In this document: positions 29,581-35,161 of the stretch, in pieces
Position numbering within the stretch: the first letter of the stretch is position 1
Layout: every line of letters starts with the position of its first letter
Assembly: GCA_913046795.1 (NCBI GenBank)
Contig: CAJWTC010000002.1
Coordinates: 1,994-65,993 of the forward strand
Origin: an uncultured Flammeovirgaceae bacterium
Lineage (GTDB): Bacteria > Bacteroidota > Bacteroidia > Cytophagales > MED-G16
Length of the DNA: 64,000 nucleotides
Reading direction: 5' to 3'
Made by a program: the position numbers and the translations under genes
The notes under the pieces: model-generated
Databases searched by the model: none
Told to the model about the DNA's origin: nothing
Seen by the model: the letters and a program-made list of their open reading frames with translations, nothing else

Positions 29581-29655
29581 GGGTCATTAACTCAGTTGGT
29601 TCAGAGTGCTACCTTGACAGGGTAGAAGTCACTGGTTCGAATCCAGTATGACCCA
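29581..29655 (+). tRNA. tRNA-Val (anticodon GAC)
   Basis: 75 nt, folded by hand. Acceptor GGGTCAT/ATGACCC plus discriminator A. D stem ACTC/GAGT. Anticodon stem CTACC/GGTAG with loop TTGACAG. Variable AAGTC. T arm ACTGG-TTCGAAT-CCAGT. No encoded CCA. Confidence 0.9.
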
Positions 29656-29681
29656 CAAATAAGATAACTTAAACAGTAAGG

Positions 29682-31054: not shown

Positions 31055-31900
31055 ATGGAAGATTTATTAATGGTTAGGACTTTTGGAATAGTGGGCTGCA
31101 TGCTAATAATATCTACGATAACAGCAAGGCTAAACAAAACTTACGAAACATTTACAGAAAAGCTATTAACAATTTTGGGAGCCTTCGCTTCAATAATTAT
31201 GGTATGGGTTTTTGGAGATATATATCCTAATAATATTATTGCATGCGTATTTCTTTCAGGGTTTGTAGGTTGGTCTTTAGGCCCTACCATTGGGTACATA
31301 GGACAAAAGTTTAAATGGAATAAATTTTTAAAAGATAAAGGAGTGAAAACGAAACAGATAAGTAATAAATCTGGTTTCTGGGGAACAAATAATAATAAGC
31401 ATTTCGTCTATTATTTTGAAGGTGACGAGAAAAATTATTTTGGATTAAGATCGAAGAAGATGCGCGCACTTGAGGACGATTTCAATAAAAATGTTTTGTC
31501 TGTTGATAGTGACCCATACAACCAAGTGTGGCAGAATGTTGTATTCCAGGCAATGTTATCAACTTGTATTGCAGTTTTTACAACGATGTTGGTTGTTTAT
31601 ATATCTCCATACAATTTTAATTTTTTAGGGGTAATCCTTTTGGTTTCTCTAATTGCATTAATAATAATGAGAATCTTAAATGCTTATATATTTAAATCTG
31701 CTAAACAGATGCTTTACCAGAGTTATGCTGGCATTGTAATCTTTACACTATATCTAGTATATGATTTTGATAGACTAAAACAGGCTAATATAGCAGGTGA
31801 TAACTCTTGGGGTACGGCAATTGATATAGCCGTTAACATATACCTTGATATAATTAATCTATTTATTGAATTGCTTATTGCAATGAGTGAAAACCAATAA
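31055..31900 (+). CDS. BAX-inhibitor-1/YccA-like membrane protein with a central hydrophilic insertion
   Basis: 281 aa, 7 hydrophobic segments. C-terminal LVYDFDRL...AIDIAVNIYLDIINLFIELL matches the BI-1 hallmark (YDTQ...A..LYLDFINLFL.LL). An about 80-aa polar segment follows TM3. Confidence 0.5.
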   Translation: MEDLLMVRTFGIVGCMLIISTITARLNKTYETFTEKLLTILGAFASIIMVWVFGDIYPNNIIACVFLSGFVGWSLGPTIGYIGQKFKWNKFLKDKGVKTKQISNKSGFWGTNNNKHFVYYFEGDEKNYFGLRSKKMRALEDDFNKNVLSVDSDPYNQVWQNVVFQAMLSTCIAVFTTMLVVYISPYNFNFLGVILLVSLIALIIMRILNAYIFKSAKQMLYQSYAGIVIFTLYLVYDFDRLKQANIAGDNSWGTAIDIAVNIYLDIINLFIELLIAMSENQ

Positions 31901-31902
31901 AA

Positions 31903-31926
31903 AAGGGCATTTTAAAAAACGCCCTT
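31903..31926. terminator. candidate bidirectional intrinsic terminator hairpin between convergent genes
   Basis: AAGGGCATTT-TAAA-AAACGCCCTT. The GGGC/GCCC stem is extended by A:T pairs, with one A.C mismatch. A T-run follows on the minus strand (TTTTTATTGG). It lies between the stop at 31900 (+) and the stop at 31950 (-). Confidence 0.4.
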
Positions 31927-31949: not shown

Positions 31950-32618
31950 TTATTTTTTTACCATATCCTGGTACTGGTAGTAGTCACCAACTGGGTACAT
32001 TACATGTGCATAAGGTGAACCTGCGAACATCACATAAGGCTCGCCAGAATTAAAGTCCGTAGTCATGCCATCTAAAGACGCAGGATCCTTTGGCATCCTC
32101 ATCAGATGAGGTCCAGACTCTATCCAGTGTCCTTCAGCTGCATCCTCTTTATTGAGGACCATAGGCTTCGTATTATCCTCACCCATATCTCCATGAAGCA
32201 TCCAAGCGTAACCGTCTTTTGCCATTACCTCTCCAGGAACAGTCCCAGCAAAATATGCACCTATCCACTTAAAAAATTCAGCGTCTCCACATGCAGGCAT
32301 CGCCTCGTGTGGATCAACCCAACCGTTCTCAGGATCTGACATTCCTCTAGGATTTGCAGGCAAACAAGTCCAACCGTTCGTTCCCTCTCTCAATAATTTA
32401 CCTCCCATGTCAGGTGGACCGTCGTACACAGCAGCACCTTCTGCAATAAACTCGGGAGCAGCTGTAGAATATGCCCATACCTGCCACTCTACACTTGTGT
32501 GTGAACCTTCTGGCTCACCATCCATACTCATGCCCATTCCCATATCAGAATTATTTGATGGTGCAGAGCATGCTGCTACAACAAAAATAGTAGCAATCAT
32601 TAAATAAAATTTTTTCAT
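31950..32618 (-). CDS. hypothetical lipoprotein encoded by a compositionally atypical (about 50% G+C) gene
   Basis: 222 aa. Lipobox IFVVAAC, Met-rich DMGMGMSMDG, Gly/Ala/Pro/Trp/Tyr-rich mature part. One ORF spans the whole high-GC block. No family recognised. Confidence 0.75.
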   Translation of the reverse strand: MKKFYLMIATIFVVAACSAPSNNSDMGMGMSMDGEPEGSHTSVEWQVWAYSTAAPEFIAEGAAVYDGPPDMGGKLLREGTNGWTCLPANPRGMSDPENGWVDPHEAMPACGDAEFFKWIGAYFAGTVPGEVMAKDGYAWMLHGDMGEDNTKPMVLNKEDAAEGHWIESGPHLMRMPKDPASLDGMTTDFNSGEPYVMFAGSPYAHVMYPVGDYYQYQDMVKK

Positions 32619-32698
32619 CTTAAATCATTTATAAATTATAATATAAGATCAATTTAAGATAAATTTTAAAAAAGGAAAAAAATGTGGGCTTAAATAAT

Positions 32699-32920
32699 TT
32701 AACCTGAACATTCACCATCTACCCATGACGTTACCCCATCCCTCCCAGCATAACAAGAGTTTGAATAAGTCACGTTATCACACCCACAAACTGGCTTATA
32801 AATTTCTATACAAACTGCATCCTCATCACCACTAGTTTTACAAGGAGATACTGAATCATTAGATTTTTCCGAACAACCAAGTAGAATTAGTGTAAAAAAA
32901 AAGAATAGTATGCTTTTCAT
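32699..32920 (-). CDS. Kazal-like cysteine-rich lipoprotein (paralog 1)
   Basis: 73 aa. Lipobox LILLGC. CIEIYKPVCGCDNVTYSNSCYA....GEC fits the Kazal core C-x-x-x-Y-x-P-V-C-G-x-D-x-x-T-Y-x-N-x-C. Confidence 0.7.
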   Translation of the reverse strand: MKSILFFFFTLILLGCSEKSNDSVSPCKTSGDEDAVCIEIYKPVCGCDNVTYSNSCYAGRDGVTSWVDGECSG

Positions 32921-32922
32921 AA

Positions 32923-33372
32923 TTATATTATTTTAAAGTCAGAAATAGTATAACCAATCTCTTCATCTGCAATCATCTCATCCATATCAAAATATATATC
33001 AATAGGAAAACCATATGTTTGGTCAAACTTTAATGTAAATATAAAGGGATCATCTTTCAGTTTTTCATCAATAATATTAAATAGTTCATCAACGGTCTTC
33101 ACATTCCAATAATCATTATTTAACTGCTCAGGTGTTACTAAATTAGAATTAACTTTTGTTATTTTATTATCTATAACTTCTATGCTGTTGGGTTCTGTAT
33201 CTAGACAGTAACAGGATACAGTAAGAATATATGAATAAGAGTTAATATTTGAATTATTCCACTTTTTTATAGCGGTTGAAAACTCCATCTCTACTGGATC
33301 CAATGTTACAGAGTCTTCAGATGAGCAACCTATAGCAAATAATAAAATTAATATTTTAAGTAAGTTTTTCAT
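32923..33372 (-). CDS. DUF6174-like lipoprotein
   Basis: 149 aa. Lipobox LLFAIGC. YSYILTVSCYC...IEVIDNKI...TVDELFNII...FDQTYGFPIDIYFD...ADEEIGYTISDFK resembles the DUF6174 pattern as I recall it. 2-nt gap to the downstream Kazal-like gene. Confidence 0.5.
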   Translation of the reverse strand: MKNLLKILILLFAIGCSSEDSVTLDPVEMEFSTAIKKWNNSNINSYSYILTVSCYCLDTEPNSIEVIDNKITKVNSNLVTPEQLNNDYWNVKTVDELFNIIDEKLKDDPFIFTLKFDQTYGFPIDIYFDMDEMIADEEIGYTISDFKII

Positions 33373-33407: not shown

Positions 33408-33614
33408 TTAACATTCACCGTCAGTCCAGGATTTGACTCCATCAATCTCGGCATAACAAGAATTAGAATAGGTATTGTTATCACATCCACATACTGGCTC
33501 ATAGACTGTTAAACAAGCCATTCCGTCTAAAACATCTGTTTTACATGGTAAAGAAGAGTCGTCATTACAACTAAAACTAAAAATTATTAAAAAGGTAAAA
33601 AGTATATTTCTCAT
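33408..33614 (-). CDS. Kazal-like cysteine-rich lipoprotein (paralog 2)
   Basis: 68 aa. Signal LIIFSFSC. CLTVYEPVCGCDNNTYSNSCYA....GEC. 29 of 45 aligned mature positions are identical to paralog 1 (hand alignment). Confidence 0.7.
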   Translation of the reverse strand: MRNILFTFLIIFSFSCNDDSSLPCKTDVLDGMACLTVYEPVCGCDNNTYSNSCYAEIDGVKSWTDGEC

Positions 33615-33643: not shown

Positions 33644-35161
33644 TTATTTTAAAAGACTTTTTCCTGTCATCTCATCAGGTAACCCAATACCCATAATATC
33701 TAATATAGTAGGAGCAATATCACCTAACTTTCCATCATTTAAATTTCTCTTATTATCTGACACATATACTATTGGTACTAAGTTAGTAGTGTGATATGTG
33801 TGAGGAGACCCATCTTTATTTATCATTACATCTGCGTTACCGTGGTCAGAAGTCACAAGAACTTCGTAATCATTTTTGATTGCAGTAGAAACTATTTTAG
33901 ATACCTCTCTATCAATAACCTCACACGCTCTTACAGTGGCATCGATACTACCTGTGTGGCCTACCATGTCGGGATTAGCAAAATTCAAACAAGCAAAATC
34001 AAATGATTTTTTATTTATTTCATCTATAAATTTTTTAGAGATTTTTTCAGCACTCATCTCTGGCTGTAAATCATATGTTGCAACTTTTGGCGACTCACAA
34101 AGAATTCTCGATTCATTTTTGAAAGGCTTCTCCCTGCCCCCTGAAAAGAAAAAAGTAACATGAGGATATTTCTCCGTCTCTGCAATTCTTAACTGAATTT
34201 TATTTTTGTTAGATAAGACTTCACCTAACGTATTTGACAAATTTTCTTTGTCGTAAAGTACAGAGATATTTTTAAACTCATCATTATAGTTTGTCATTGT
34301 CATATACCTCAAATTCATTTTTTTCATTCCGTGAGAAGTCAAATCATTTTGAGTTAAAACCTCAGAGAGTTCTCTCATCCTGTCAGACCTGTAATTAAAT
34401 GAAAAAAGTACATCGCCTTCTCCTAAGACACCAACCGGTTTGTTGTCTTTGTGGCATACTATTGGCTTGATAAACTCATCTGTAACATTATTATCATGTG
34501 ATGCTTCTATAGATTTTATTATGTCTTCACTGGCTACACCTATACCCTTGGTCATCGAGTCAAATGTTAACTTAACCCGCTCCCATCTCTTATCTCTATC
34601 CATTGCATAATACCTCCCACTCACTGTTGACAGGTTAATATTTGTTCCAGAGATATAATCTAATAATTTATTAAACTCTCCAATCGAATCCAGTGGCCCA
34701 GAATCTCTTCCGTCTGTAAATAGATGTAAATTAACCTTCAATTCATTAAACTCTCTCAGAAAATCTAGTACGTAATAGAGATGATCTGAATGCGAGTGAA
34801 CTCCTCCCCTAGATAGAAGGCCCATAACGTGGAAATCTTTATTATTTTTTATGGCGTATTCGACAGATGACAGAAACTCTTTTATCTCTCCAATACCTTT
34901 ATCTGCTAGAGACTTATTCAGCCTGATGAGATCCTGATCCACTACTCTGCCAGCACCTATATTCATATGGCCAACTTCTGAATTTCCCATCTGACCATCG
35001 GGTAGTCCCACGTCAACCCCAGAAGCGGAAAGAGAAGCTGATGGATAATGGTCAATTAAATGATCATAAAATGGTGTGTTTGATTTATGAATTGCAGAAA
35101 CATCTGGATCCTTACCAAGACCCCAGCCATCCATAATTAGAAGAATTACTTTTCTAGACAT
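33644..35161 (-). CDS. gpmI: 2,3-bisphosphoglycerate-independent phosphoglycerate mutase
   Basis: 505 aa. LLIMDGWGL, GNSEVGHMNIGAGR, SGRYYAMDRDKRWERV, TSDHGNAD. Confidence 0.95.
   Translation of the reverse strand: MSRKVILLIMDGWGLGKDPDVSAIHKSNTPFYDHLIDHYPSASLSASGVDVGLPDGQMGNSEVGHMNIGAGRVVDQDLIRLNKSLADKGIGEIKEFLSSVEYAIKNNKDFHVMGLLSRGGVHSHSDHLYYVLDFLREFNELKVNLHLFTDGRDSGPLDSIGEFNKLLDYISGTNINLSTVSGRYYAMDRDKRWERVKLTFDSMTKGIGVASEDIIKSIEASHDNNVTDEFIKPIVCHKDNKPVGVLGEGDVLFSFNYRSDRMRELSEVLTQNDLTSHGMKKMNLRYMTMTNYNDEFKNISVLYDKENLSNTLGEVLSNKNKIQLRIAETEKYPHVTFFFSGGREKPFKNESRILCESPKVATYDLQPEMSAEKISKKFIDEINKKSFDFACLNFANPDMVGHTGSIDATVRACEVIDREVSKIVSTAIKNDYEVLVTSDHGNADVMINKDGSPHTYHTTNLVPIVYVSDNKRNLNDGKLGDIAPTILDIMGIGLPDEMTGKSLLK

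Follow-up and report, generated by a model that had tools for sequence, protein, structure and literature searches.

Introduction

In AT-rich genomes, the balance of 'GARP' and 'FYMINK' residues in proteins is a known driver of deviation in G+C content. Here we analyze a gene that stands out in this way within 64,000 nucleotides (nt) of DNA from an uncultured Flammeovirgaceae bacterium (contig CAJWTC010000002.1; the whole stretch is referred to as the window). The gene (31950-32618, minus strand; open reading frame (ORF) call, ATG start) encodes a predicted exported lipoprotein of 222 amino acids (aa) and coincides with a steep peak of G+C, which a sequence-only reading had attributed to recent horizontal acquisition, taking the Met and His richness of the product as a hint of metal binding. 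Our analysis indicates that the peak is very probably a by-product of the composition of the protein, with no foreign-DNA signature, and that the gene has been inherited vertically within its clade. For the protein itself we advance, tentatively, a role in copper handling outside the cytoplasm, and we consider this combined account of composition, descent and function likely as a whole.

Several described proteins offer a comparison for such a role. PCuAC proteins, periplasmic Cu(I) chaperones, bind one Cu(I) through Met3-His ligands within the motif H(M)x10Mx21HxM (PMC7558416). CusF and CopC are exported periplasmic proteins and hold Cu(I) in sites built from His and Met, the site of CusF consisting of His, two Met and Trp (PMC7558416). 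CopG-like proteins are periplasmic, bind a Cu cluster through CxCC (PMC7558416) and are linked to copA and cus genes (PMC7558416; PMC12341060); in Vibrio parahaemolyticus, copG carries a DUF411 annotation and is Cu-induced in a CueR-dependent manner (PMC12341060).

Base composition and codon usage

Composition statistics were computed on a heuristic set of 57 ORFs in the window (ATG-started, ≥100 aa, greedily non-overlapping). The lipoprotein gene has a G+C content of 45.1% (302/669) against 30.2% for the whole window, with local 60-nt windows of up to 57%, and the richest 600-nt stretch of the window lies at 31967 (47.8%; runner-up elsewhere, 39.8%). Relative to the ORF mean of 30.2% (standard deviation (SD) 3.5), the gene ranks first (z ~4.3). 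An island of ~50% G+C in ~30% DNA had been reported from the letters alone; the island is there, but as a mean the figure of ~50% was somewhat too high. The hand counts behind it were exact at 29/60, 34/60 and 19/60, but the spacer at 32641-32700 holds 10/60 G+C, not 12/60.

By codon position, the excess lies mainly at positions 1 and 2 and less at position 3 (G+C by position: GC1 0.547, GC2 0.448, GC3 0.359; window GC3 mean 0.236, SD 0.042), and two other ORFs in the window have similar GC3 values (0.366 and 0.342). We re-encoded the protein of each ORF with synonymous codons at their mean frequencies in all other ORFs of the set. The lipoprotein then had an expected G+C of 0.437 (observed, 0.454), the highest of the 57 ORFs (z 5.3; other ORFs average 0.299, SD 0.026). 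The residual attributable to codon choice was +0.017 (z 1.1, rank 9/57; GC3 residual, z 1.5), and ~89% of the G+C excess came from amino acid composition. Because recoding with the codon usage of the window already yields 0.437, the peak reads as a by-product of composition.

The residues responsible are plain from the protein, which contains 11.3% Gly, 10.4% Ala, 8.1% Pro, 8.6% Met and 3.2% Trp, compared with 5.5%, 3.8%, 2.7%, 2.1% and 0.8% in the window, and in which Ile, Leu, Lys and Asn each occur at no more than half of the window average. Its four-fold degenerate codons are host-like and A/T-ending (GGT and GGA for 21 of 25 Gly, GCT and GCA for 21 of 23 Ala, CCT and CCA for 17 of 18 Pro). 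The last codons do include TAC four times, CAG twice and GAC once, as the sequence-only reading had counted (with one GAT besides), but as a sign of foreign origin this run at the 3' end dissolves into local fluctuation, with orthologs differing from it (TAC 1/11 and CAG 0/2 in L003; L numbers denote genomic loci with a family gene and P numbers denote family proteins).

Orthologs, synteny and residence time

A scan with one genome per species gave 24 loci encoding relatives of the lipoprotein. The closest orthologs (83-93% identity) are found in uncultured marine Cytophagales metagenome-assembled genomes (MAGs) and single-amplified genomes (SAGs) labeled Marinoscillum or Flammeovirgaceae, and more distant ones (54-71% identity) in genomes labeled Marinoscillum, Flavobacteriaceae, Flavobacteriales or Bacteroidetes/Bacteroidota. 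In 24/24 the gene is 7-16 G+C points above its own flanks (+0.07 to +0.16), with GC1 of 0.47-0.55, GC2 of 0.40-0.46 and GC3 of 0.17-0.34, and two further low-GC marine loci have gene-flank offsets of +0.13 and +0.08. In family members whose hosts have 52-61% G+C, the offset is smaller (+0.02 to +0.06) and GC3 higher (0.60-0.74). Overall, GC3 tracks the host (0.16-0.74) and GC1 and GC2 are constant, which is the signature of a constrained protein resisting mutational bias. Purifying selection would, in such a case, fix codon positions 1 and 2 while position 3 drifts to the AT bias of the host.

Placement and silent-site divergence both bear on how long the gene has been resident. The order gpmI, Kazal-like lipoprotein, lipoprotein gene, Bax1-I-like gene, o30219 and o29682 is kept in 14 species-level genomes, which are independent MAG or SAG assemblies. 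Four-fold-site identity to the two closest relatives, measured at conserved residues, is 67% for the lipoprotein gene, 66% for gpmI and 67-69% for o36497; to deeper relatives it is 37-49% for the lipoprotein gene and ~25-45% for most neighbors, with Bax1-I reaching 71%. The silent sites of the gene fall together with those of its neighbors, so that gene and neighbors have diverged in parallel. At comparable silent-site divergence, the lipoprotein is 85-93% identical and the product of the adjacent gpmI (33644-35161), phosphoglycerate mutase of glycolysis, 64-66% identical (L003-L013); conservation beyond that of gpmI implies unusually strong purifying selection.

Marks of mobility were absent around the gene. 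Its neighbors are Bax1-I, Kazal-type, DUF6174, gpmI, RecX and similar genes, with no mobility gene among them; no repeats were found flanking it; and the nearest tRNA (Val, 29581-29656) is 2.3 kb away without a partial copy in the window, leaving no tRNA attachment scar. The lipoprotein gene thus fails every test for a recent island, by codons, placement, silent sites and mobility marks. The recent horizontal acquisition proposed from the sequence alone does not survive these results: elevated G+C, which that reading had itself named as grounds for its rejection, is present in all 24 related low-GC genomes, codon usage is native, synteny is conserved and the silent sites co-diverge with those of the neighbors. 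The gene would already have been in the common ancestor of the marine Cytophagales (Marinoscillum/'Flammeovirgaceae') clade and have descended vertically since.

One locus departs from this pattern. L015 (5198-5851) has full synteny and neighbors as similar as elsewhere, but its family gene is only 69% identical (85-93% in the others) and takes a different position in a rough tree; at this conserved site the resident allele may have been replaced or have recombined.

The lipoprotein and its family

The N terminus carries a predicted signal peptide and lipobox, MKKFYLMIATIFVVAAC (32568-32618, minus strand; read from the sequence), in which Cys17 would be the lipidated residue. The lipoprotein assignment made from the letters holds up, with the lipobox FVVAAC followed by Ser and a positively charged N-region, a hydrophobic h-region and a lipobox of the form [LVI][ASTVI][GAS]C all recognizable in MKKFYLMIATIFVVAAC before that Ser, and GWTCLP and the other motifs quoted at the time are all present in the ORF translation. 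Among 359 N-complete family members, a lipobox accompanies the h-region in 60%, the h-region stands alone in 27% and an RR motif occurs in 4 proteins; ~87% carry Sec-type export signals. By these features, the product is classed as a predicted Sec-exported lipoprotein. The signal is followed by a Met-rich linker, DMGMGMSMDG (residues 25-34; 32517-32546, minus strand), which is lineage-specific and is absent or reduced in P0031, P0025 and P0022. As a clue to metal binding, to which it had been put, the linker fails, since it is limited to close relatives and is no family trait.

Beyond the linker lies a conserved domain (residues ~40-212; 31983-32501, minus strand) with an alpha/beta fold predicted by AlphaFold. 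The model of the query was confident (predicted local distance difference test (pLDDT) 88.1, predicted template modeling score (pTM) 0.79, core >94), and that of a soil member without the loop typical of marine members had the same alpha/beta topology (pLDDT 84.3). Foldseek searches with these two models gave no match in PDB or BFVD. No match within the domain was obtained from Pfam-A or NCBIfam for the query, the 47 members of the alignment (A1) or long and tandem relatives, and at E ≤ 1 Pfam gave no hit for the query or any A1 member. No relative was found among PDB sequences by phmmer or with the 47-sequence profile. These Pfam, NCBIfam and PDB negatives bear out the earlier remark that no family could be recognized, and a literature search with literal peptide motifs returned no matching paper. 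Two candidate relatives were discarded: a putative lipase, the lone PDB-sequence match (E 0.67), is a chance hit, and PF26259, precomputed for P0279, was not reproduced on re-scan.

The family is large. It has 791 close homologs; an exhaustive search gave 680 clusters at 50% identity, a profile search recovered 4,685 or more clusters (90% identity), and every name in the source annotation of the homologs is 'hypothetical protein'. The taxa named include Bacteroidota, Acidobacteriota, Chloroflexi (Caldilineaceae, Anaerolineae) and Actinobacteria (Sporichthya). The domain occurs in fusions with DUF4440/SnoaL, an SGL propeller, PAP2 and a beta-lactamase-type hydrolase, in tandem two-domain proteins and in four-repeat proteins with a C-terminal membrane anchor. 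In the marine subtype, P0121 has four tandem repeats, and transmembrane or anchor-like C-terminal tails are seen in P0121, P0136, P0141, P0372 and P0139. The anchored tandem forms look eukaryotic (phytoplankton?), which suggests sharing of the domain between domains of life.

Conserved residues and candidate metal site

Residue conservation was scored over 156 domains with <60% mutual identity. Cys85 (97%) and Cys110 (98%) form a probable disulfide, with Asp112 (94%) just after (32289-32366, minus strand). In P0290, a marine tandem lipoprotein, each of the two repeats has Ala in place of C85 and Val in place of C110, and this joint loss suggests a disulfide; the pair would be dispensable and lost as a unit, which fits P0290.

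A second group of conserved residues, Met140, His171-x-Met173, Met197 and His205-x-Met207, constitutes a candidate metal site (31998-32201, minus strand), proposed from conservation and predicted beta-strands. Conservation is 94% for H171, 93% for H205, 93% for M140, 92% for M173, 93% for M197 and 90% for M207. Leu, Ile or Val hardly ever take the place of the four Met, whereas the ordinary hydrophobic positions 132, 175 and 185 are freely variable, and rare Met/His swaps occur (M207H four times, M140H twice, M173H once, H205M twice). Such invariance of Met together with Met/His swaps is expected of thioether and imidazole ligands rather than of core packing. In the AlphaFold model, Met140, both His-x-Met pairs and Met197 each lie on a predicted beta-strand.

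For the disulfide, the clustering of the ligands in three dimensions, the metal bound and the role of the protein in the cell, we infer the following. After Sec export and lipidation, the domain would fold in the periplasm or at the cell surface, where the Cys85-Cys110 disulfide would form and stabilize it. His171, His205 and Met140, Met173, Met197 and Met207 would converge on a soft metal ion arriving from outside the cytoplasm, likeliest Cu(I), and the lipoprotein would buffer the copper or hand it over at the envelope, as PCuAC and CusF do. We put forward this extracytoplasmic binding of a soft metal, most likely Cu(I), with a buffering or hand-over role, as a serious candidate that falls somewhat short of an even chance. 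The wider proposal, that the proteins constitute a previously unrecognized fold family binding Cu(I) outside the cytoplasm through a His2/Met4 site on a disulfide-stabilized alpha/beta domain, is more doubtful.

Gene neighborhoods of family members

Loci were found with the profile of a subset alignment (A2), the A1 profile being too diverse. In L022, genes for a TonB-dependent receptor, two exported HMA proteins and the family protein follow one another on one strand, separated by gaps of 14, 10 and 32 nt. An HMA profile matched just these two ORFs among the 2,262 called in 72 loci >3 kb, and Pfam confirmed both. In L014 and L016, the family gene, a gene for a 164-aa Plug-only protein and one for a DUF411/CopG-like protein with a CGCC motif come in this order on the same strand. 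The metal-gene neighbors in these two lineages are suggestive evidence for a metal role. With the invariant His and Met, they lend some support to the metal binding hinted at by the sequence-only reading; the Met/His-rich stretches from which that hint was drawn do not.

Other features of the neighborhoods were recorded. The Plug-only lipoprotein (L014, 10762-11256, and its L016 equivalent) is unusual in consisting of the Plug domain of TonB-dependent receptors alone. Tandem two-domain members of the Chloroflexi type lie within two genes of a large STAND regulator in 6/6 cases (L029, L030, L031, L115, L116, L117), the regulators being of the BTAD/AAA_16/AAA_22 kind or NB-ARC with TPR, and in L029 and L117 a Peptidase_S15/PepX_C gene is also found downstream; the STAND neighbors bear on regulation, not on chemistry. 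Two Flavobacteriales-type loci have in common a conserved hydrophobic membrane protein of 74-77 aa, encoded directly upstream on the same strand (L018, 9609-9842; L020, 9487-9711), and the small upstream ORFs of L018, L020 and L023 have no metal-binding features.

Features around the gene in the window

A hairpin that scores as an intrinsic terminator (31903-31926, minus strand; 10-bp stem with 4 G-C pairs, 4-nt loop, T-run) lies between the lipoprotein gene and the convergent gene at 31055-31900 (plus strand). The GC-stem hairpin said to bound the block therefore exists, but as an ordinary terminator between convergent genes and not as an island border. On the other side, the 80-nt AT-rich gap was described correctly: the upstream spacer (32619-32698, minus strand) has 15% G+C by base count and presumably contains the promoter and 5' untranslated region, and a promoter search within it gave one weak sigma-70-like match, not above shuffled expectation.

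The convergent neighbor encodes a Bax1-I/YccA-like membrane protein that is extended by a long segment at its N terminus, and it is missing in three syntenic relatives (L005-L007), so that the variable element is the neighbor and not the GC-rich gene. Just upstream of the lipoprotein gene, two paralogous small, Cys-rich lipoproteins bearing Kazal-type inhibitor domains flank a DUF6174 lipoprotein (32699-32920, 32923-33372 and 33408-33614, all minus strand). The Kazal paralogs form a 114-nt direct repeat of 75% identity, and relatives appear to have one Kazal copy; the DUF6174 gene is present in some relatives only (L005-L008, L010-L012).

Alternative explanations

A number of observations weigh against the account given above, some touching the source of the G+C and the descent of the gene and others the proposed function. 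On composition, GC3 is still somewhat above the window mean, and GAG supplies 11 of the 15 Glu codons where the background share is 0.34 (uncorrected p = 0.002); a small codon-level component, ~11% of the excess, is therefore real. Glu alone deviates among the nine two-fold amino acids of the gene, GAG is also favored over GAA in most close-clade orthologs (L001-L013) and not in more distant lineages, and the preference could relate to expression level or local mRNA context. Selection for G/C-ending codons in a highly expressed gene would draw on this preference, on C-ending codons for Phe, Tyr, His, Asn and Asp (0.37 vs 0.23 elsewhere; z 2.1, rank 3/57) and on the very large homolog clusters (786 and 1,640 member sequences); yet it explains at most ~11% of the excess, the TAC/CAG preference is unconserved and Phe, Asn and Lys are unbiased, which makes it very unlikely as the source of the peak. 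Recent acquisition of a small island from a higher-GC donor is more improbable still. The richest G+C stretch of the window, a modestly raised GC3 and sharp AT-rich borders speak for it, but it is contradicted by native codons (z 1.1, A/T-ending at four-fold sites), by the same offset in 24/24 orthologs, by synteny in 14 genomes, by silent sites as diverged as those of the neighbors and by the lack of any integrase, transposase, flanking repeat or tRNA scar. A mis-joined, higher-GC fragment in a chimeric assembly would likewise produce a sharp change of composition at the gene borders, which is all that speaks for it; the same gene has the same neighbors in 14 independent assemblies, single-cell genomes included, and its borders fall at a terminator and an intergenic spacer of ordinary kind, so that of all the explanations this is the hardest to credit.

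Vertical descent is demonstrated only within the marine Cytophagales clade. The marine subtype, recognized by its RGMSDPENGW...HEAMP loop, shows 64% identity to a cluster containing proteins of Acidobacteriota MAGs, and this too weighs on the other side. An ancient transfer between phyla of this subtype, into an ancestor of marine Bacteroidota or separately into several marine lineages, and fully ameliorated since, with silent sites at equilibrium and a G+C excess left at the constrained positions 1 and 2 alone, would be compatible with the composition reading and differs from our account on origin. It would accommodate the 44-59% identity to eukaryote-like tandem or membrane-anchored forms, the differing contexts among Cytophagales-type, L014/L016, L025, L028 and Flavobacteriaceae-type genomes, the divergent copy at the syntenic site in L015 and the patchiness of the family across phyla. 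Against it, a rough neighbor-joining tree broadly follows taxonomy within Bacteroidota, and the similarity across phyla could reflect strong constraint on a protein that evolves more slowly than gpmI. We regard such a transfer as rather unlikely, and in any case it would not account for the G+C seen today. Composition and vertical descent within the clade are retained as the explanation of the peak.

As for function, metal-gene neighbors occur in just 2 independent marine Bacteroidota lineages across ~60 contexts, where ~0.6 such lineages are expected by chance at rough background rates, and there are no metal genes in the neighborhood of the gene in the window itself. All-vs-all clustering of 353 neighbor ORFs from 60 independent contexts returned no family in more than 3 contexts as a recurring partner, and a Pfam census of 150 neighbors gave at most 3 hits per family. 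His/Met-rich tails, considered as a family-wide copper hallmark, were rejected: they occur in only 2/409 proteins, and in one of these, P0139, the tail is an anchor signal of hydrophobic residues. A sugar-binding, anion-binding or catalytic site would also be compatible with the conserved Trp, Arg, Asn and Asp. A different function on the same domain, be it a pocket for haem b or another organic ligand, a carbohydrate or anion site, or an active site for hydrolysis or redox chemistry, is favored by the conservation of R77, N81 (92%), W83 (90%), D112 (94%) and W165 (90%), a set spanning 83-94%, and by the fusions to enzymes and small-molecule-binding domains. Sub-threshold fold matches include the haem proteins cytochrome P460, cytochrome c'-beta and KtzT, a gene for a SOUL haem-binding protein lies nearby in L014, and there is no general linkage to copper operons. 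The fold matches are, on the other hand, at noise level (E ≥ 0.49, TM-score ≤ 0.22), four invariant Met with Met/His interchange are unusual for sugar-binding or hydrolytic sites, and both of the informative gene clusters carry soft-metal proteins. We hold this alternative, the chief rival on function, to be rather unlikely as well, and keep Cu(I) binding as the tentative proposal.

Implications

For genome scanning, the locus provides a worked case of what is very probably a false genomic island, a peak of +15 G+C points with sharp borders from which the island signal is removed by correction for composition, or by GC3 together with orthologs. As a by-product, it brings to light a large exported family, abundant in ocean metagenomes, for which no name, Pfam model or structural relative was found. 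The remaining interest plausibly lies in the protein itself, a member of an unnamed exported family with a confident model lacking a structural match and with a candidate copper site. If copper binding is true, the domain would be a new scaffold for periplasmic copper handling in very abundant marine heterotrophs, and a new-fold family for copper capture or hand-over at the envelope would span marine Bacteroidota, soil Chloroflexi and Actinobacteria, and the eukaryote-looking anchored tandem forms.

Comparison with known systems

Among copper proteins, PCuAC (PccA/PcuC/AccA; PF04314) is alike in being small and Sec-exported and in placing His-x-Met and single Met residues on beta-strands. It differs in the spacing of these residues, which in the lipoprotein is M...HxM-x23-M-x7-HxM and not H(M)x10Mx21HxM, and the lipoprotein family has a conserved Cys pair, no PF04314 match (query and 47 A1 members), no Foldseek match of its predicted alpha/beta fold to any PDB chain, PCuAC structures presumably included, and no link seen to a cytochrome-oxidase assembly gene. 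With CusF and CopC the family shares export and invariant His, Met and Trp; it is set apart from CusF (PF11604), CopC (PF04234) and HMA (PF00403) by negative results throughout (Pfam, NCBIfam, PDB sequence and Foldseek PDB), and from CusF and CopC also by genes that lie outside cus/cop operons and by a larger domain (~170 aa) that has helices. CopG (DUF411) and exported HMA proteins resemble it in export and are neighbors of family genes in L014/L016 and L022. Their sites are Cys-based (CxCC, CxxC), whereas the lipoprotein family has no such motif and the two Cys of the lipoprotein, ~25 residues apart, look structural; such neighbors accompany family genes in no more than two lineages. Judged by these features, the lipoprotein would work at best like PCuAC, CusF or CopC and belongs to none of these families.

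In its base composition, the gene compares most directly with the GARP/FYMINK effect. As in other cases of that effect, a protein under constraint that abounds in Gly, Ala and Pro and has little Ile, Lys and Asn keeps GC1 and GC2 high under any mutational bias, here across hosts of 26-63% G+C; unlike them, the lipoprotein is extreme (z = 5.3 in the window), with an offset large enough to mimic an island.

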